A stretch of 64,000 nt of DNA, taken from the NCBI GenBank assembly GCA_964514375.1, contig CAZEQH010000004.1, forward strand, positions 191-64,190, read 5' to 3'. Shown piece after piece: positions 15,990-62,822 of this stretch. Position 1 is the first letter of the stretch. Every line of letters begins with the position of its first letter. The position numbers and the translations under genes were made by a program. The DNA is from an uncultured Candidatus Saccharibacteria bacterium. GTDB lineage: Bacteria > Patescibacteriota > Minisyncoccia > Minisyncoccales > JANBVM01. Under the pieces are notes generated by a model. It ran no database searches. It had not been told where the DNA came from and saw nothing but the letters and a program-made list of their open reading frames with translations.

Positions 15990-16332
15990 GGGGGTGTACA
16001 GATTCGACAGAGATGCAATCCAAAACATGCAAGTCGAGCCCAAAACTCGTAAAACTTTGGAAAACAAAACAATTGCCAATCTATTTGAAGGGCAACCCGC
16101 ATTAGCATTTGCTTAGTCTAATGCCATCTTCTCTGCCCATTCTCGATAAGCAGAGCAAGGTGTTATATCATCGAGAAAAAGAGTTCTTTGCGGTTCCGGG
16201 AGTTACTCCCGATAAACCGGACAGAAAGATTTTGCTCGGCTTCATACTTTCTGTCATGTTTCAAACCGAGACAAACTTGTAGACTGTTCTGGTGACCGTC
16301 CCTGGACAAGGGGGCAGTTCCCTTCATCTCCA
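15990..16332 (+). ncRNA. ssrA: tmRNA (SsrA), one-piece
   Basis: The 5' end GGGGGTGTACAGATTCGACAG pairs with the 3' end CATCTCC (acceptor stem, two G-U pairs), followed by discriminator A. The 3' architecture GGAC-AAGGG-GGCAGTT-CCCTT-CATCTCC-A parallels E. coli GGAC-GCGGG-UUCAACU-CCCGC-CAGCUCC-A. The internal tag ORF at 16075-16116, GCC AAT CTA TTT GAA GGG CAA CCC GCA TTA GCA TTT GCT TAG, encodes ANLFEGQPALAFA*. CCA is not encoded. Confidence 0.85.
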
Positions 16333-16339
16333 CAAAAAT

Positions 16340-24001: not shown

Positions 24002-25294
24002 CTATTTTCTTCCCCTCCGGGAATAGAATTTTTTCTTGACCTCATCAAAAAAGTCAAAACAAAGCTGATTGTCACATTTTTCAAAAGCCCATTCCCAAAT
24101 GGGAGCCGCGGAAAATTTATTATTCTGACGTTCATACAATAGATTCTGAAGGAGAACCGCCAGAACATTAATCTGAGACAGAAAACTGCCTTCCGGACTG
24201 CTCCTGGTTCTGTATTCTCTCCATAAATCGATAATCTCTTTCTTGAAAGGAGGCTTTAGATTACGGGAAAGATTTTCCAGGGCTTCTTTTTCTTCTTTAA
24301 AGTCTTCTGCAAACTGCTCTGCCTTTTCTGCCTGAGAAAGCCGCACCCACTTTTTAAGGGCTTCCTTTCGAGTTTTTCCTTCCCTGGGTAAATTACTATC
24401 ATAAGGAGTGGTATCTCCGGTATAGACGGCTGATATCTCATGGCAGAGAGCCATTTTGATGAGCTTATCCAGATTGCACTTTATCTGACTTCCGAAAACC
24501 CACGCCATAATAGAGACTGTAAAGATGTGGCCTGCTACTGTTTCCGGCTCCTTAACCTTCCTTATCTTCCAGTACATCCTCGGCAGTCTCTTCAGTTTTC
24601 CCACTTGAAGAAGAAAATCCAGAATATTCTCAAGTTCCCTGTCGCCTTTCTCCATCTTCTTGCTTTTAGGATAAAATCTTGCCTGTATAACCTTTAAAAA
24701 ATCTATCAACATGGGGTCTTCAACCATTTCCTCTGTCCCTTCCCACCAGCTGGTACCGCTGTCCTCTTCCTTGCTCCCCAGATATTCTATTGACTGGAGA
24801 AGGGTTTCTATCCTGTCTACCTGCTTTACAAATTTACCTTCCTGCGACATTCTCCTTTCGTATCCCAGCCATGAAGAAAACAATTCTCTCTTGAGCTGGG
24901 GAGAGAGACTTTGAATTAATTTCTCCAAGCTCTCCTTTTCTTTTTGAAACTTTATTCTTCCTCTTTTCTCCTTTTCCTTTTTAGTCAGCCGCACCCACCT
25001 CATCAAGGCCTTCTCCTTATCCATTTTCCCTTTTCCCTGCGGAAGGTCCACATAGTAAAAAAACGGGGTCATATCCCCCGCATACACTTCACATAGGTCA
25101 TGGGCCAAAGCCATCTTGACTGCTTTGGCGGCGTTGAGCCCTCTCTTTTCGGCCAGAAGCCAGCAGGCCAGAGCAAGCCGAAAGGTATGGTCTGCGATGG
25201 TCTCCGGATTTTTTACTCCCATCAACACCCATCCTGTTCTCTGCATTGTTTTTAATTTACTGACTTCCAGGAGGAAGTCCAATGCTTTATCCAT
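24002..25294 (-). CDS. Tandem HD-domain phosphohydrolase (two YfbR-like 5'-deoxynucleotidase modules fused)
   Basis: Two copies of the pattern R(T/M)GW...PET(I/V)A(D/G)H...A(L)(A/C)H(D/E)...GD(M/T)TP (aa ~15-80 and ~235-300). The duplication is visible at nucleotide level too (gccgcacccac in both halves). Confidence 0.65.
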   Translation of the reverse strand: MDKALDFLLEVSKLKTMQRTGWVLMGVKNPETIADHTFRLALACWLLAEKRGLNAAKAVKMALAHDLCEVYAGDMTPFFYYVDLPQGKGKMDKEKALMRWVRLTKKEKEKRGRIKFQKEKESLEKLIQSLSPQLKRELFSSWLGYERRMSQEGKFVKQVDRIETLLQSIEYLGSKEEDSGTSWWEGTEEMVEDPMLIDFLKVIQARFYPKSKKMEKGDRELENILDFLLQVGKLKRLPRMYWKIRKVKEPETVAGHIFTVSIMAWVFGSQIKCNLDKLIKMALCHEISAVYTGDTTPYDSNLPREGKTRKEALKKWVRLSQAEKAEQFAEDFKEEKEALENLSRNLKPPFKKEIIDLWREYRTRSSPEGSFLSQINVLAVLLQNLLYERQNNKFSAAPIWEWAFEKCDNQLCFDFFDEVKKKFYSRRGRK

Positions 25295-25401: not shown

Positions 25402-25875
25402 TTATATGAAGCGGTATTTGACGTCTTTAATTTTATAGACAACCTTGATAGGAGAGGTAATAATCACTTCTTCCCCCTTTATGTGTCCGAGCAGGGTTCT
25501 ACCTATGGGGGAGGCAGAAGAAATCTTGCCTTCTCCCGGATTGGCCTCGAGGCTTCCTACAATCATAAATTCGTTAATCTGACCGTCTGCCTCCTGGAGG
25601 GTTACTGTCGCTCCAAGTGATACTATATCCCGCTTGCTCTTGGCGGGCTTCTTGATAGTCTCTGCATTTTTGAGAACATTGGTGAGCTCAACAATCCTGG
25701 TCTCCAAAAAACTGAGGTCTTCCCTAAAAGAAAGGTATTCCGGATTTAAATCTTCTGAGTGTAAAGCGGTGGGGGTTTCTCCCGTGGTTTTGGCAAACTT
25801 AATCTTCTTCAAATCCTGATATTCTTTTTGAAGTTTTTTTAATCCTTCTTTAGTGAGGTAAAACTTGTTTTCCAT
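25402..25875 (-). CDS. greA: Transcription elongation factor GreA
   Basis: N-terminal coiled-coil (LTKEGLKKLQKEYQDL) and C-terminal FKBP-like domain (ISSASPIGRTLLGHIKGEEV). Confidence 0.85.
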   Translation of the reverse strand: MENKFYLTKEGLKKLQKEYQDLKKIKFAKTTGETPTALHSEDLNPEYLSFREDLSFLETRIVELTNVLKNAETIKKPAKSKRDIVSLGATVTLQEADGQINEFMIVGSLEANPGEGKISSASPIGRTLLGHIKGEEVIITSPIKVVYKIKDVKYRFI

Positions 25876-25881
25876 GGTTTT

Positions 25882-25913
25882 AAAGAGAAAAGGCCTCTCT
25901 TGGTGAGAGGCCT
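25882..25913 (-). terminator. Intrinsic terminator/attenuator 15 nt upstream of the greA start codon
   Basis: On the minus strand: AGGCCTCTC-accaa-GAGAGGCCT followed by TTTCTCTTT, then aaaacc-ATG(greA). Confidence 0.65.
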
Positions 25914-26085
25914 AGTAGTGAGTTCCTGATGATAGTGTTAGCGGCTTTTTCTACTAAACCTCTCGTGTTTTTCTCCGTAAGTGGTGGAGACACAAATTTT
26001 CCAGGTTTTAATCCCGGTTAGTGTAAAAAATGTATTTTGCCTTCTTTTATTCATAATCTAATCTGGGTTTACTAGAACTTTTTTC

Positions 26086-26113
26086 ATTATAGCCGCAAGG
26101 TTAATGTTGTCAA
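26086..26113 (-). promoter_or_regulatory. Consensus sigma-70 promoter pointing toward greA
   Basis: On the minus strand: TTGACA (26113-26108), 16-nt spacer, TATAAT (26091-26086). Both hexamers match the consensus perfectly. Confidence 0.65.
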
Positions 26114-26151
26114 GATTAGAATATTAAAGCGACCGGTGAGCCGGTAAGCCT

Positions 26152-26179
26152 TTGAAAATTTATTTCTTTCTTTTAGAAT
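26152..26179 (+). promoter_or_regulatory. Sigma-70-like promoter for rtcA
   Basis: TTGAAA (26152-26157), 16-nt spacer, TAGAAT (26174-26179), about 30 nt upstream of the rtcA ATG. Confidence 0.5.
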
Positions 26180-26208
26180 AAAGGAATCACGGCTAATATC
26201 CCTGATAT

Positions 26209-27243
26209 ATGATTACAATCGACGGTTCCAAAATGGAAGGAGGAGGACAGATTTTGAGAACCTCCCTCGCCCTGGCCTCAAGTTTAAGACAGTCCTGCGA
26301 AGTTTCTCATATAAGGGAAGGAAGGGAAAAACCCGGCCTCATGCCTCAGCACTTGTCGGCCTTAAAGGCGGCGGCTGAATTGTGCGGAGGGGAGGTAAAG
26401 GGGGATTTCCTGGGAAGCAGGACGATACAGTTTTTTCCCGGCGCCTCTACAGAAAAATCTCTGACCATTAAGCTGGAAACGGCGGCCAGCATTCCTTTAA
26501 TAATGCAGGCCCTAATACTCCCCAGTCTTGTGTCTTCTTCTCCTGTTTCTATAAGTGTCAGAGGGGGGGCTACCGACACCTTCTTTGCCCCGTCATGGGA
26601 TTTCTTCCAGCATGTATTTCTAAAAATATTGGAAAGGATGGGAGCTGAGATAGAAGTGGAAACTAAAAAAAGGGGTTATTTTCCGGAAGGCGGTGCGGAA
26701 ATCATTTTGAAAATCCATCCCTCTTCTTTGAAAATTCGTTCCCTTACTAAAAGAGGGGAATTGACGAAAATATCGGTTTTTTCGGGAGCATCTTCTTCTC
26801 TACGGGAAAGAAAGGTAGCCGAACGCCAGATTACGGGAGCCAGAAGTGTGCTAGACAAGCTGAAAGGTTTTCCCGTACATACAGACATTAGGTATTACCA
26901 AACAGAATCCCCCGGCAGTCATATTTGCCTGGCGGCAGAATTCACCGGCACGGTTCTGGGGACAGATGTTCTGGGAACCCTGGGTAAAAGAGCTGAGGAC
27001 GTGGGACGGGAAGCTGCATCCAACTTACTGGAAGAAGAAAAAAATGGCGCCTGCCTGGATAAACATCTGACAGACCAGGCCCTTCCCTTTCTTGCCCTGC
27101 ATCCAAAAAAAATCGAGGTCAAGACCTCGCAAATTACCAGCCACGCCAGGACTAATATGTGGGTGATTGAAAAATTTATAAAAGGAAAATTCGAAACGCG
27201 GGAAAATAACATTACCTGGCTGCCGCTACAATCTAATCAGTGA
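26209..27243 (+). CDS. rtcA: RNA 3'-terminal phosphate cyclase RtcA
   Basis: IDGSKMEGGGQILRTSLALASSL at the N-terminus and the length (344 aa) are typical of RtcA. Confidence 0.8.
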   Translation: MITIDGSKMEGGGQILRTSLALASSLRQSCEVSHIREGREKPGLMPQHLSALKAAAELCGGEVKGDFLGSRTIQFFPGASTEKSLTIKLETAASIPLIMQALILPSLVSSSPVSISVRGGATDTFFAPSWDFFQHVFLKILERMGAEIEVETKKRGYFPEGGAEIILKIHPSSLKIRSLTKRGELTKISVFSGASSSLRERKVAERQITGARSVLDKLKGFPVHTDIRYYQTESPGSHICLAAEFTGTVLGTDVLGTLGKRAEDVGREAASNLLEEEKNGACLDKHLTDQALPFLALHPKKIEVKTSQITSHARTNMWVIEKFIKGKFETRENNITWLPLQSNQ

Positions 27244-54026: not shown

Positions 54027-54054
54027 TTGACAGAGTTTTTCGGGAAATTATAAT
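54027..54054 (+). promoter_or_regulatory. Consensus sigma-70 promoter for the acidic mini-protein
   Basis: TTGACA (54027-54032), 16-nt spacer, TATAAT (54049-54054). Both hexamers are perfect. Confidence 0.65.
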
Positions 54055-54119
54055 ATCTTGTAAGGTTCCTTAATAAAGGGAAAAAGGTCGGGAAAGGATA
54101 GGACCTTAAAGAAACCGAT

Positions 54120-54305
54120 ATGACTTACCAAGGTAATTTCCCCTTTTCTTTTATTAATGACGATGAAGAAGATTTCATGGACGAGGAAACGGAAGATGAA
54201 TCAGAGGAATTAGACGATGAAGATGATGTCTTAAAAGACGATAAAGGCGTGGAAGATGATGATGAAGGGCTGGAAGATGTAGACGACGAATTCGACGAAG
54301 ATTAA
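54120..54305 (+). CDS. Hyper-acidic 61-aa protein
   Basis: MTYQGNFPFSFINDDEEDFMDEETEDESEELDDEDDVLKDDKGVEDDDEGLEDVDDEFDED: 33 of 61 residues are D/E by my count. It has its own consensus promoter and a downstream hairpin with a T-run. Confidence 0.5.
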   Translation: MTYQGNFPFSFINDDEEDFMDEETEDESEELDDEDDVLKDDKGVEDDDEGLEDVDDEFDED

Positions 54306-54329
54306 AGCCCCTTAAAGGGGGTTTTAATT
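54304..54329 (+). terminator. Weak intrinsic terminator after the acidic ORF
   Basis: AAAGCCCC-ttaaa-GGGGGTTTTAATTTTT: a short GC stem plus a T-rich tail. Confidence 0.45.
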
Positions 54330-54350
54330 TTTCCGCCGCTCATTTCTCTT

Positions 54351-54378
54351 TTGAAAAAAAGAAGAAAATTATTATAAT
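54351..54378 (+). promoter_or_regulatory. Sigma-70-like promoter for the PBP gene (very short leader)
   Basis: TTGAAA (54351-54356), 16-nt spacer, TATAAT (54373-54378). The ATG is only 11 nt downstream of the -10. Confidence 0.55.
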
Positions 54379-54389
54379 AGGTAGATACT

Positions 54390-56384
54390 ATGCCGAAAAG
54401 AAAATATAAAAGGGCAACCTATAAAAAGGAGGGGGGGCGTTTCTGGCTCGGAATACGGTTGTTTTTTGCAGCTTTACTTTTGGGTGTTTTCGCATTTTTC
54501 TTTCTGTTTTTCTATTACGCCAAGGACTTTCCCCGCCCCGAGCTTTTTTCAGAAAGACAGCTTTCCCAGTCCACTAAAATATACGACCGCTCAGGCCAAG
54601 TCCTGCTTTACGAAGTATACGGCGAAGAAAAAAGGACATGGATTCCTTTATCCCAGATACCTCAGCAGCTCCAGCAGGCAGTCATCGCAACGGAAGACGC
54701 TCATTTTTACACCCATTTCGGCATAGACGTTGGACGTATTATCCGGTCCCTGTTGACGGACTTTAAAATAGGTAAACCCACCTACGGCGGTTCTACTATC
54801 AATCAGCAGCTAATCCGTTCTACCTTCTTAACTCTGGATAAAACCATAGAAAGAAAATTCCGGGAAATTATCCTGTCCTTGGAATTAGACAGGAGGTATT
54901 CCAAAGACCAGATTTTAGAGTGGTATCTTAACCAGGTACCCTTCGGCCAGAATGCTTACGGAGTAGAAGCCGCCAGCCAAACCTACTTTAATAAATCCGT
55001 AGAAAATATTTCCCTCTCTGAATCCGCCATCCTCGCCTCCTTAATAAATGGCCCTTCACGCCTTTCTCCTTATGGACAGAATAAAGACGAACTGTTGGCG
55101 AGAAAAGATTACGTTATTGATAGGATGGCAGAAGAAAGATATTTGACCGCAGAGCAGGCCGAGGAGGCAAAACAGGAAAACGTGGAATTCTCAGATAAGC
55201 CCCTGCAGATAAAGGCCCCCTACTTTACTTTATGGGTAAAGCAGCAGCTGGAAGAAAAATACGGGGAAGAATTCCTGCGCGCCAAGGGATTAAAGATTTA
55301 TACCTCCTTGGACTGGGGAATTCAGCAAACCGCGGAAGAGGCCTTAAAGAACGGCATAGAAAGGAATAAATCATACAATGCCCACAATGCAGGCTTGGTT
55401 TCTATAGACCCGAAAACGGGCCAGATTTTAGCCATGGCGGTAGGCACCGGAGATTATTATGACGACCCCTTTCCCAAAGATTGTATTTCCGGAAAGAATT
55501 GTCTCTTCGACCCAAAATTTAACGTAGTGGTGGGGACGGAGAACAACCCGGGGAGACAGCCGGGTTCAGCCTTCAAACCATTCGTTTATGCCACTGCTTT
55601 CAAAAACGGATATACGGATAGAACTACCGTTATTGATGAGCCCACCAACTTCGGGGTTTGGGGAGGAAAAGAATATACTCCGCAGAATTATGACGGACTT
55701 TTTAGAGGGGAAGTTACCCTTAGACAGGCGTTAGCCCAATCTTTAAATATCCCCTCCGTTAAGGTTCTTCTTAATTTAGCGGGGCTGGATGCAAGCATTA
55801 AAACCGCCAAGGATTTAGGTATCACCACTTTAACCCCTCCCTACGGCCCTTCCATCGTCTTGGGGGGATGGGAGGTTAAATTATTAGATATTACTTCGGC
55901 TTACGGGGTTTTTGCCAATGATGGCAGGAGAGTGCCCCCTGTTTCTATTTTAAAAGTAGAGGACGCAAGCGGACGAGTCTTGGAGGAAAATAAAAAAGAA
56001 CCAATAGTGGTGCTGGATAAAGAAGTTGCCAGAATGGTCAGCGATATACTTTCCGACAATCAAGCCAGAACCCCCATGTTTGGTCCTCGCTCCAATCTTT
56101 ATTTCACGGATTACCAAGTGGCAGCCAAAACAGGTACCACCCAAAATTACAGAGATGCCTGGTCTATAGGTTTTACTCCTTCGCTAGTGACCGGGGTGTG
56201 GGCAGGCAATAATAACAACGCCGCCATGTCTTCGAAACCGGCCGTTACTCTGGCTGGCTCCATCTTTCATGATTTCATGGAAAAGACGCTTCCCAAATTC
56301 CCGAAAGAAAATTTTATAAAACCGGCCCTGCTTCTGAACCATCTCTTGGAAAATAATTCTACATCGACAAACCCCACACCGTAA
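54390..56384 (+). CDS. Class A penicillin-binding protein (glycosyltransferase GT51 + transpeptidase)
   Basis: N-terminal TM. GT51 motifs ATEDAHFYTHFGID, GGSTINQQL and RKFRE. Transpeptidase motifs GSAFKP (SxxK), SLN and KTGTT. Confidence 0.9.
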   Translation: MPKRKYKRATYKKEGGRFWLGIRLFFAALLLGVFAFFFLFFYYAKDFPRPELFSERQLSQSTKIYDRSGQVLLYEVYGEEKRTWIPLSQIPQQLQQAVIATEDAHFYTHFGIDVGRIIRSLLTDFKIGKPTYGGSTINQQLIRSTFLTLDKTIERKFREIILSLELDRRYSKDQILEWYLNQVPFGQNAYGVEAASQTYFNKSVENISLSESAILASLINGPSRLSPYGQNKDELLARKDYVIDRMAEERYLTAEQAEEAKQENVEFSDKPLQIKAPYFTLWVKQQLEEKYGEEFLRAKGLKIYTSLDWGIQQTAEEALKNGIERNKSYNAHNAGLVSIDPKTGQILAMAVGTGDYYDDPFPKDCISGKNCLFDPKFNVVVGTENNPGRQPGSAFKPFVYATAFKNGYTDRTTVIDEPTNFGVWGGKEYTPQNYDGLFRGEVTLRQALAQSLNIPSVKVLLNLAGLDASIKTAKDLGITTLTPPYGPSIVLGGWEVKLLDITSAYGVFANDGRRVPPVSILKVEDASGRVLEENKKEPIVVLDKEVARMVSDILSDNQARTPMFGPRSNLYFTDYQVAAKTGTTQNYRDAWSIGFTPSLVTGVWAGNNNNAAMSSKPAVTLAGSIFHDFMEKTLPKFPKENFIKPALLLNHLLENNSTSTNPTP

Positions 56385-60533: not shown

Positions 60534-60972
60534 AAAAATAAAAGAGATTACTAGGGAATTTTTTAACAAAACAAGCTTTGGAGTGGAAGTGGAAGTTTTA
60601 CCTCAGAGCGGCCTGACAATCCCTATTAATCTTGAAACCGACAATCCCCAGGTTCTTATCGGAGAGGGAGGGCAGACCCTGACAGATTTCCAGCATATCC
60701 TAAAAGCCATCTTAAGGCGGGAAATACAGGAAGATTTTTATATAGACCTTGATATCAACGGTTACAAAGAACAGAAAAAAAGATATCTCAGGGAACTGGC
60801 CGGCTCCTTAGCCGACGAAGTGTCCCTGATGAAAAAAGACAAAATACTTCCTCCCATGCCCGCTTACGAGAGAAGGATTATTCATATAGAACTAGCCGAT
60901 AGGACGGACGTGACCACGGAAAGTATCGGTCGGGAACCCGAAAGGAGGATTATAATAAAACCCTACCCTTAA
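60511..60972 (+). CDS. jag: Jag/KhpB-like KH + R3H RNA-binding protein
   Basis: C-terminal R3H motif (PMPAYERRIIHIELADRTDVTTESIGREPERRIIIKP); follows yidC. Confidence 0.8.
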   Translation: MISPNQIEKIKEITREFFNKTSFGVEVEVLPQSGLTIPINLETDNPQVLIGEGGQTLTDFQHILKAILRREIQEDFYIDLDINGYKEQKKRYLRELAGSLADEVSLMKKDKILPPMPAYERRIIHIELADRTDVTTESIGREPERRIIIKPYP

Positions 60973-60992
60973 AGTTTAAAAAAGAGAATTCG

Positions 60993-61018
60993 AAACCCCC
61001 TCCAATGAGGGGCTTTTT
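60993..61018. terminator. Bidirectional intrinsic terminator between jag and the VirB4-like gene
   Basis: AAACCCCCTC-caat-GAGGGGCTTTTT. Confidence 0.65.
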
Positions 61019-62822
61019 ATAATCTGGACTCTTTAGCCTTTTTTATTTTTAGTACCTCTTCCGGGCTGGTGGTAATAATCTGGTCTTCCGTATAAGAAGC
61101 TATAGACCTTGTGGCTACATGTTTTTGCCCCGCAAAGAATATTCCTTCTCCAACTTCGGCTTCCAATAGGAGATATTTTTCCTGGTCGGTCAGGTTAAAA
61201 GTCTTTTTAACGATATCAATAGTGGCTGGAGACTGCTTCATTAATATTTGGAGAGCAGAGTTAGTAATAATCGGCTGTCCGTAGGAAGATTTCATAAAGT
61301 CGTTGACGTCCTGGGAAATAGTGGTTACTCCCAACCAGTACTTCCTCCCTCTTTTGCAAATCCCATAAAGGAAGGACGCCCCGTCTTCGTTCTTCATTAT
61401 CCACCAGGCTTCATCCACCACCAAAATTCTTTTTTTCAGTTCCGTCCTGACTTTATTCCAGATATATCTCATAATAATGAACATGGCGATGGGTCTGAGC
61501 TCGTCTTCCATATCCCTGATACCGAAAACCACGAAGGGTTTTTCCATAGTGATATTAGTGGGCTCGTTAAAGAACTGGGCAAAGGTTCCCTTGGTGAATT
61601 TTCTCACTCTCCTTACCAAAGACTCCGCCCCCTCCATACCCTCCAGGATGGCTTCAAAGTCCTCCATTAAGGGTATCCTTTCCTGCCAGGTGCCGGGATC
61701 GCTGTCGGGGGTAATATCCTTGGCTGCATAAGTTTCCGTTAAGGCCCTGTCTATAATGGCGTCCTCTTCAGGGCTTAGTCCGCCGAGCATTATCCTTAGA
61801 AGCCCGACCAGATTAATAATATTAGACCTTAAGACATCCTCCGGTTTTTCGTCTTCTCTGGGAGTGGGCAGGTCAAAGGGGTTGATGTGATTAGGAGAAG
61901 CCAGGGAGATGCTGAAATAAGAACCTCCTACCCCCTCGGCCAGATGATTGTATTCGTTTTCAGGGTCTATCACTATAACCTCCACGCCGGTCATTAAATA
62001 TCTTAGTATTTCCAGCTTAACAGTGTAGCTCTTACCGGAGCCCGACTTTCCGAAAAGTACTTCATTGGCGTTTTCCAGGCTGAACCTGTCAAAAAGGATT
62101 AGGGAATTATTGTGCTGGTTTACGCCGTAGAGAACTCCTTCATTGGAGCTTAAATCAAAAGAAGTGAAGGGAAAAGAAGAAGAAAGGGGTCCCGTGTTCA
62201 TGGAGGTATGGACCATCAGCTGGTCCATACCATAGGGGGCGGTGGAATTAAACCCTTCCCTCTGCTGGTAGAGAGCAGGCTTTACATATATCAGCCTTGA
62301 TTCCAGGATAGAACGCAGATTAGTGGTTACATCGGTCAGCTCCTGCCTTTTTTCCCCGTAAATGGTGATATAGACTCCCAATCTAAACATCCTCTCCTGA
62401 GCGGTCTGTAATTTATCTCTGAGGGTTTCCAAATCCTGATAGGCCACTTCTAAAGCAGGGTCGCGAATAAGCCCCTTTTCTTCTCTTTCAGCTATCTCCG
62501 CCATTACTTCGGTTACCTTTTTCCTTAATTTTTTAAGTATGTCCCCCGTTTCAATGGGAAAGATATGGAAACCTACATTCATAGGAGTGTCCATATTAAT
62601 AACGGGTGAAAACCATCCGGTGGTTATGTACCTGGGATAGGAAAAAATGAAAAAAGACCTGGCTAATCTCTTCCCCAGTTTCAAATGGTCTGGCTTAAGA
62701 GATGTTAAAGCAGAGGGAGCGATGATGTCCTTGATGTCTATCTTAGAGGTTTCAAAAATCTGTTCCGGTATTTCCCTTTTTTTAAAAAAGGGCAGTTTTC
62801 TTAAGAATGGAGGTAGTTTCAT
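61017..62822 (-). CDS. virB4: VirB4/TraE-like type IV secretion ATPase, C-terminal 601-aa part (ATPase domain)
   Basis: IAPSAL...LGKRLARSFFIFSYPRYITTGW (typical of Gram-positive-type VirB4), Walker A VLFGKSGSGKSY, Walker B ILVVDEAW. Confidence 0.75.
   Translation of the reverse strand: MKLPPFLRKLPFFKKREIPEQIFETSKIDIKDIIAPSALTSLKPDHLKLGKRLARSFFIFSYPRYITTGWFSPVINMDTPMNVGFHIFPIETGDILKKLRKKVTEVMAEIAEREEKGLIRDPALEVAYQDLETLRDKLQTAQERMFRLGVYITIYGEKRQELTDVTTNLRSILESRLIYVKPALYQQREGFNSTAPYGMDQLMVHTSMNTGPLSSSFPFTSFDLSSNEGVLYGVNQHNNSLILFDRFSLENANEVLFGKSGSGKSYTVKLEILRYLMTGVEVIVIDPENEYNHLAEGVGGSYFSISLASPNHINPFDLPTPREDEKPEDVLRSNIINLVGLLRIMLGGLSPEEDAIIDRALTETYAAKDITPDSDPGTWQERIPLMEDFEAILEGMEGAESLVRRVRKFTKGTFAQFFNEPTNITMEKPFVVFGIRDMEDELRPIAMFIIMRYIWNKVRTELKKRILVVDEAWWIMKNEDGASFLYGICKRGRKYWLGVTTISQDVNDFMKSSYGQPIITNSALQILMKQSPATIDIVKKTFNLTDQEKYLLLEAEVGEGIFFAGQKHVATRSIASYTEDQIITTSPEEVLKIKKAKESRL

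Follow-up and report, generated by a model that had tools for sequence, protein, structure and literature searches.

The transcription factor GreA frees RNA polymerase that has backtracked, and the dosage of this factor is under tight control. In Escherichia coli, two-thirds of greA transcripts stop within a leader of 40-60 nt, GraL (PMC2836576), which is non-coding and carries a terminator that begins 19 nt after the transcription start (PMC2836576, PMC6829880). GreA of E. coli acts by way of GraL in cis to repress greA; this effect needs catalytically active GreA and occurs only in vivo, implying an unidentified cellular factor, and the mechanism of this leader-based autoregulation is unresolved (PMC6829880). 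Attenuators predicted in Proteobacteria, bacilli and Clostridia place the greA/rnk family seventh in rank among the genes concerned, its attenuators being described as 'each with a clear antiterminator' (PMC2965389). In the whiB7 leader, efficient translation of its upstream open reading frame (uORF) leads to a terminator, whereas inefficient translation leads to an antiterminator and read-through; the whiB7 uORF is long, variable between species and alanine-enriched, and the model has experimental support (10.1101/2023.06.02.543512). Here we describe the leader of greA in a stretch of 64,000 nucleotides from an uncultured Candidatus Saccharibacteria bacterium (contig CAZEQH010000004.1; the whole stretch is called the window below). 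This leader is a real and conserved cis-regulatory element, a peptide-coding variant of the known greA attenuators, and its architecture suggests that the ribosome probably decides between termination and read-through.

Promoter, terminator and antiterminator of the greA leader

The leader and greA lie on the minus strand of the window. A -35 hexamer TTGACA (26113-26108), near-invariant in related loci, and a -10 hexamer TATAAT (26091-26086) are separated by a 16-nt spacer and match the consensus at 12 of 12 positions, as found both by direct reading of the strand and by a promoter scanner. Only two perfect matches to TTGACA-16-TATAAT are present on both strands of the window, and the four matches with at most one mismatch compare with 0.42 expected, a count reached by none of 100 shuffles. 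Since the number of matches exceeds that in shuffles and the position before greA is conserved in about 50 related genomes, the promoter is beyond chance level. From its position, transcription is predicted to start near 26079, which gives a predicted leader transcript of about 197 nt extending to the U-tract at approximately 25882. The leader ends in an intrinsic terminator with a 9-bp stem, AGGCCTCTC / GAGAGGCCT (25913-25891, six GC pairs), a loop ACCAA (25904-25900) and, directly after the stem, the U-tract UUUCUCUUU (25890-25882; read as TTTCTCTTT). The start codon of greA at 25875 is 15 nt past the terminator stem, which leaves no room for a separate greA promoter. The regulated gene (25875-25402, 157 aa) is identified as a genuine GreA by matches to both Pfam domains, GreA_GreB_N (PF03449, E = 1.8e-11) and GreA_GreB (PF01272, E = 6.3e-19).

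Upstream of the terminator, segment 2 (GAGAGGUUUAGUAG, 25964-25951) pairs over its full 14 nt with segment 3 (CUACUAGGCCUCUC, 25918-25905) to form an antiterminator, which is present in the minimum free energy (MFE) and centroid folds, has an RNAduplex energy of -22.2 kcal/mol and is supported by covariation. The intervening loop (25950-25919) is A-rich, variable across the family, and holds the stop codon of the uORF described below. The last 9 nt of segment 3 (25913-25905) are at the same time the 5' arm of the terminator, whose 3' arm we call segment 4 (GAGAGGCCU, 25899-25891), and the two helices are therefore mutually exclusive. The leader (26079-25881) folds with an MFE of -47.2 kcal/mol (z = -3.16), and both its MFE and centroid folds contain the segment 2:3 helix, not the terminator. 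In isolation, the antiterminator hairpin of the window has an energy of -21.6 kcal/mol versus -16.4 kcal/mol for the terminator hairpin, and the antiterminator is the more stable of the two in 35 of 46 loci (means of -14.6 versus -11.8 kcal/mol). Across the family the antiterminator loop is 12-53 nt long and 50% A, with varying sequence. A small hairpin, UCUCC-N9-GGAGA (25990-25972), lies 7 nt upstream of segment 2 inside the uORF; its stem is unchanged in the relatives L001 and L082, which show two loop substitutions, and it was not found outside the window's subclade, where it may act as a subclade-specific pause or timing hairpin.

Related loci were collected by GreA-anchored retrieval with one genome per species, giving 80 loci. 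The closest 58 greA loci belong to Parcubacteria (Nealsonbacteria, Paceibacteria, Wildermuthbacteria and similar lineages) of the Patescibacteria, or candidate phyla radiation (CPR), and the best relative, L001, has a GreA identity of 93%. Promoter, uORF, antiterminator and terminator were found upstream of greA in 49 of these 58 loci, so that the promoter and terminator occupy the same relative positions in about 50 genomes. In the 49 loci a near-consensus promoter (TTGACA almost invariant) is followed by an ATG-initiated ORF of 27-48 codons, by a segment 2 that pairs with the terminator 5' arm and a few bases upstream of this arm, and by a terminator usually located 10-35 nt before the greA ATG. 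Searching with a covariance model of the family leaders brought in L012 (47 bits) and, as a weak match, L021. Apart from the two helices and the uORF, the leader shows little sequence conservation; outside the helices, conservation is highest in the 3' part of the uORF. In some loci (L009, L017, L021, L031 and also L008) an additional AT-rich insertion of 60-160 nt follows the attenuator terminator, ahead of the greA ATG; it contains two small conserved hairpins, for example TTCAATGAATCTTTGATTCATT and AAATAAATTTATTT, and may serve as a promoter region or add another layer of regulation.

Covariation was evaluated on 47 sequences aligned with plain MAFFT, which was given no structural information; 500 shuffles and pairing to a slid partner served as controls. 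For the antiterminator, 82.8% of the cells are paired versus 42-58% with slid partners, and 98 double-change cells were observed versus 41.3 +/- 8.0 in the shuffles, none of which reached the observed value. Compensatory changes are present in 11 of its 14 pairs, including six of the seven in the extension outside the terminator. The terminator gave 81.1% paired cells versus 44-75% with slid partners and 58 double-change cells versus 27.5 +/- 5.1, again with 0 of 500 shuffles reaching the observed count. Two mutually exclusive helices, each with support of its own, are the hallmark of the expression platform of an attenuator.

The element is specific to greA in the window and in the retrieved metagenome loci. 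A metagenome scan using the segment 2/segment 3 signature alone returned two loci, both located before greA and both from the same lineages as L001 and L003; they agree with this specificity but contribute little to it. The only further covariance-model match in the window (60931-61025, 24.9 bits) was rejected as a second copy; it corresponds to a common terminator at the end of a Jag-like gene, where ORFs converge. No match to Rfam was obtained for the locus at gathering scores in a search of the whole window, and at E <= 10 the region 25850-26220 produced no relevant match, only noise such as Phe_leader (18 bits versus a threshold of 55), driven by the terminator. Scans for tRNA and tmRNA found nothing at the greA leader locus.

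The first-pass annotation of this DNA, made from the letters alone, had named the perfect promoter, a strong intrinsic terminator ending 15 nt before the start codon, greA as the downstream gene and a terminated leader of about 190 nt, and all of these stand. It had also proposed that greA expression may depend on read-through of the leader terminator; this is now well supported by the lack of room for a promoter of its own and by the conserved, covarying antiterminator.

The upstream open reading frame

A uORF of 38 codons plus TAA (MNKRRQNTFFTLTGIKTWKICVSTTYGEKHERFSRKSR; 26054-25938) begins with ATG about 25 nt after the predicted transcription start, extends across segment 2 and terminates 13 nt downstream of it. 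The earlier statement that the minus strand carries no further gene between the promoter and greA was thus wrong. The closest relative L001 has a homologous uORF (MNRYGSQKFFFMLTGIKTWRYDVSITCGEICERFSKKSR), and 45 of 46 loci have an ATG-initiated ORF that spans 25 or more codons and ends at segment 2, whereas dinucleotide shuffling of these leaders gave an expectation of 5.6 +/- 2.2. In a nucleotide alignment of 16 full leaders, nine of ten gap events within the uORF are multiples of three (six of 16 downstream of it), and the uORF stop codons fall in one column in 15 of the 16 sequences. Thus, the reading frame is preserved across indels.

The position of the uORF stop relative to the helices is also fixed. 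In all 46 loci it lies from -6 to +31 nt relative to the start of segment 2 and 36-75 nt ahead of the terminator end. Two arrangements were observed: either the stop codon touches or overlaps segment 2, as in C-UGA-GGGGAUUAG, or, as in the window, the uORF continues across segment 2 and terminates within the A-rich loop.

The uORF peptides share a polar or basic N-terminus and a hydrophobic middle, and the uORF tail is rich in Lys and Arg. Their composition tracks nucleotide composition with no runs of any amino acid across the family, and no Pfam family was matched by the peptides. A tail of the form KW-x7-(V/I)LTFGK-x2-C/R-stop is common to one subfamily, the window has LTGIKTW in this part, and the motif is not family-wide. 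Neither the uORF nor greA is preceded by a Shine-Dalgarno (SD) sequence, which is unremarkable because the genome is SD-poor: SD-like 4-mers at -20 to -4 were found before seven of the 55 long ORFs (>=120 aa) of the window, with a mean anti-SD duplex energy of -1.2 kcal/mol. In a subclade of relatives (L051, L053, L054, L056, L058 and L072) the uORF ATG is only 8-9 nt past the -10 hexamer, and the leader mRNA of this subclade is probably leaderless, with the AUG at or beside its 5' end.

Proposed ribosome-mediated attenuation and rival explanations

We propose that the leader is a ribosome-mediated (leader-peptide) attenuator of greA that senses translation in the manner of whiB7. This mechanism is formulated at the level of architecture, and we give it a probability of about 0.7. 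A strong sigma-70-type promoter would start the ~197-nt leader, in which segment 2 lies within the 3' end of the uORF or, in the sister subfamily, directly after the uORF stop. Pairing of segment 2 with segment 3 would create the 14-bp antiterminator, and pairing of segment 3 with segment 4 instead would create the intrinsic terminator. Because the antiterminator is transcribed first and is more stable, naked RNA is expected to default to read-through. If the lead ribosome is on the last ~11 codons or on the stop codon while the polymerase makes segments 3 and 4, segment 2 would be buried in the ribosome, the terminator would form, and the ~197-nt leader RNA would be released without greA. A ribosome that is absent, late or stalled earlier in the uORF would allow the antiterminator to form and greA to be transcribed. 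Absence of translation should lead to read-through and not to super-attenuation, because the leader has no segment 1.

This scheme was modelled by moving a 31-nt ribosome mask stepwise along the window's leader and refolding the RNA. With the P-site at codons 28-38 the terminator was predicted, whereas masks at codons 13-25, or free RNA, gave the antiterminator. Since the uORF has no run of any one amino acid, the most likely signal is general translation status, that is, how far the first ribosome lags behind the polymerase; the same input has been put forward for whiB7 of mycobacteria. Polymerases without a close trailing ribosome backtrack more, and GreA resolves backtracked complexes. The physiological logic would then be that poorly followed polymerases need more GreA. 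The first-pass annotation had suggested a GraL-like attenuator; the attenuator part is well supported, and the antiterminator and the conserved uORF, both of which it had missed, point to control by the ribosome more than to a GraL-like mode. The feedback by GreA and the discrete small RNA that it had also raised may apply, but ribosome-mediated attenuation does not need them.

Several points weigh against this mechanism. Translation of the uORF, the transcription start, termination in vivo, the signal and the direction of regulation are themselves predictions. In the window's subclade, a ribosome halted at the stop codon would cover only the 3' half of segment 2, and termination there would therefore need a ribosome transiting segment 2 at the right moment. 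The leader has no conserved pause hairpin or segment 1:2 pairing that could synchronise ribosome and polymerase as in trp. The thermodynamic model is noisy, because masks at codons 4 and 10 also gave the terminator, via near-degenerate long-range pairings. Selection on the uORF peptide is weak, with entropies of 0.81, 0.84 and 0.91 at the three codon positions and a ratio of synonymous to non-synonymous changes of 74:166 in frame, barely better than 75:183 and 58:229 in the shifted frames; close pairs of uORFs show 22 synonymous versus 37 non-synonymous changes. To our knowledge, coupling of transcription and translation has not been demonstrated in CPR bacteria.

A more specific form of ribosome-mediated attenuation would make the leader a dedicated sensor of coupling, which measures the distance between the polymerase and the first ribosome and raises GreA when polymerases lack ribosomal support, with GreA possibly feeding back via pause escape in the A-rich spacer; we offer this only tentatively. 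The spacer between segments 2 and 3 is also central to a kinetic attenuator through which GreA would regulate itself, its level being sensed as escape from pausing or backtracking. Abundant GreA would bring the polymerase to the terminator while the ribosome still masks segment 2, causing termination, and with scarce GreA the polymerase would linger, the ribosome would leave, and the antiterminator would allow greA to be made. Repression of greA by its own product through the leader in cis is known from E. coli (PMC6829880), and a variable spacer of 50% A combined with a fairly constrained distance from uORF stop to terminator (mostly 25-41 nt) would fit a timing device. However, no conserved pause element was identified in the leaders, and the A-rich spacer is equally explained by base composition and the Lys/Arg-rich uORF tail; such a kinetic layer, which would be an addition to the ribosome model and not a replacement, appears rather unlikely. 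The uORF tail raises another alternative, in which the nascent peptide (the KW-x7-(V/I)LTFGK-x2-C/R-stop motif, or, in the window, LTGIKTW) makes ribosome stalling depend on a small molecule or cellular state, and the stall position sets antiterminator or terminator, as in the TnaC, Erm or Cat leaders. The motif is so placed that a ribosome stalled on it would just leave segment 2 uncovered, and the good conservation of the 3' part of the uORF is not accounted for by any RNA helix. Nevertheless, its restriction to one subfamily, the weak synonymous/non-synonymous pattern, a composition that matches that of the nucleotides and the lack of a Pfam match make an arrest leader unlikely. Strong peptide-level selection was tested and found to be weak, and no arrest peptide is claimed here. 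Sensing of an amino acid was rejected, as there are no enriched or clustered codons, and a trp-like four-segment design was rejected for want of a conserved 1:2 pairing; duplex energies between the uORF body and segment 2 are no better than those of shuffles (mean z = -0.47).

The remaining explanations assign the main role to a product other than the greA message or to a ligand. A perfect promoter and an efficient-looking terminator predict an abundant short RNA, and the ~197-nt transcript might be a trans-acting small RNA, or a leader with a dual function, to which read-through into greA is incidental. The terminated leader rnTrpL of Sinorhizobium meliloti reportedly has activities in trans. 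Such activities are also described for E. coli GraL (PMC6829880). However, the window contains no separate promoter for greA, the element turned up only beside greA and has no Rfam match, and the poor conservation outside the helices and uORF together with a variable loop argue against a conserved target-binding region, so that we consider a discrete small RNA gene quite unlikely. 6S RNA and SRP RNA, considered because of the ~200-nt size and the strong promoter, were rejected, since neither model matched, the RNA ends lack a closing stem and a conserved ORF occupies the region. A functional small protein co-transcribed with greA, with the hairpins acting as a partial terminator or stabiliser that sets stoichiometry, would agree with the conserved, frame-preserving ORF and with the shared polar/basic N-terminus and hydrophobic middle. 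Yet the amino acid sequence shows little conservation within the family, its composition resembles a random one, and this proposal leaves unexplained both the covarying antiterminator that shares the terminator strand and the fixed placement of the stop at segment 2; we regard it as very improbable. A riboswitch, with an aptamer for a metabolite or protein controlling the antiterminator, would use the same antiterminator/terminator platform, but no conserved structured domain was found upstream of or within this platform. RNAalifold on the full leaders gave the terminator as the sole conserved helix with no aptamer-like domain, the region upstream of segment 2 is filled by the frame-preserved ORF, and Rfam contains no match, which makes this the most improbable of the explanations weighed.

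If ribosome-mediated attenuation is correct, GreA supply in these bacteria would be tied to translation status, and the leader would provide the first cis-regulatory RNA mechanism worked out for Parcubacteria, within the literature searched, as well as indirect evidence for transcription-translation coupling in CPR bacteria. The dedicated coupling sensor, if true, would add a direct regulatory link between coupling and Gre-factor supply and would mean that coupling operates in CPR. A minimal-genome lineage with few regulators keeps this elaborate greA leader in about 50 species, and the architecture points to the ribosome as the deciding factor. Even if the leader is merely an ordinary attenuator with partial termination, a conserved uORF and a leader RNA overlooked by gene callers and Rfam would be a useful annotation. 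With about 230 bp, the leader is a compact part suited to heterologous reporters.

Genomic surroundings and relation to known attenuators

The gene divergent from greA is rtcA (RNA 3'-phosphate cyclase, 26152-27243, plus strand), with a promoter-like site at 26152-26179 back-to-back with the greA leader promoter, and the rtcA/greA-leader synteny is retained in two metagenome relatives (L081 and L082). Downstream of greA, a gene on the minus strand (24002-25294) encodes 430 aa with two tandem HD_3 (YfbR-like 5'-deoxynucleotidase) domains, and a promoter-like site lies between the two genes at 25390-25363. The other perfect TTGACA-16-TATAAT of the window (54027-54054, plus strand) precedes a 61-codon ORF (54120-54305) for a highly acidic peptide (MTYQGNFPFSFINDDEEDFMDEETEDESEELDDEDD...) with its own terminator, the whole feature spanning 54027-54332; it was considered as a similar device and rejected, the gene behind it being unrelated and coding for a small acidic protein. 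Another near-consensus promoter (54351-54378) is located ahead of the next gene, which has its ATG at 54390. A tmRNA is present at 15990-16335 (plus strand; Rfam match of 95 bits, E = 7.5e-36), and ARAGORN gave no report of a tmRNA there.

Attenuators on greA are already known, and the peptide-coding, translation-sensing version proposed here is new in that it is undescribed for greA in the literature searched, which contained no description of a greA leader from CPR bacteria; none of the cited papers on greA attenuators reports a leader ORF. Like GraL and the greA/rnk attenuators, the Parcubacteria leader places an intrinsic terminator between a strong promoter and greA, and greA mRNA arises by read-through. 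Unlike the enterobacterial GraL leaders, it is neither short nor non-coding: GraL has 40-60 nt with 19 nt before the terminator and no reported leader ORF, whereas the Parcubacteria leader has ~197 nt and a conserved 38-codon ORF whose end overlaps the antiterminator, with no sequence or Rfam similarity between them. In eight Dehalococcoidia greA loci (L060 and L065-L071), a leader of about 60 nt with no uORF was observed about 30-90 nt upstream of greA, in which a conserved terminator-like hairpin about 25 nt after the promoter (GACTGRRGGYC...GRCCTTCAGTC + T6) is followed by the SD sequence GGAGG and the ATG. By their sequence, these leaders appear to have a GraL-like architecture in Chloroflexota, of which we found no report. 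Because the Dehalococcoidia loci carry a short leader free of a uORF, the Parcubacteria and GraL-like designs are distinct.

As in ribosome-mediated attenuators, the Parcubacteria locus combines a leader ORF, a terminator before the gene, a covarying and mutually exclusive antiterminator, and an ORF end located at the antiterminator 5' arm. It resembles the trpL, hisL, pheL and thrL leaders in having a leader peptide ORF and alternative hairpins that share a strand, between which the position of the ribosome would choose. In contrast to these leaders, it has no tandem regulatory codons or conserved 1:2 pairing, its uORF is two to three times longer, and the regulated gene encodes a transcription factor and is not a biosynthetic operon. 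The whiB7 leader is unrelated in sequence, controls a transcription activator instead of greA, and belongs to Actinobacteria and not to CPR bacteria; its uORFs are alanine-enriched, whereas the Parcubacteria uORFs show no enrichment beyond nucleotide composition, and its mechanism is experimentally supported, while that of the greA leader is predicted from sequence. The two systems are nevertheless alike in their overall design, since in both a promoter-distal gene lies behind a fairly long and variable uORF with no run of one regulatory amino acid, and is preceded by a terminator/antiterminator switch.

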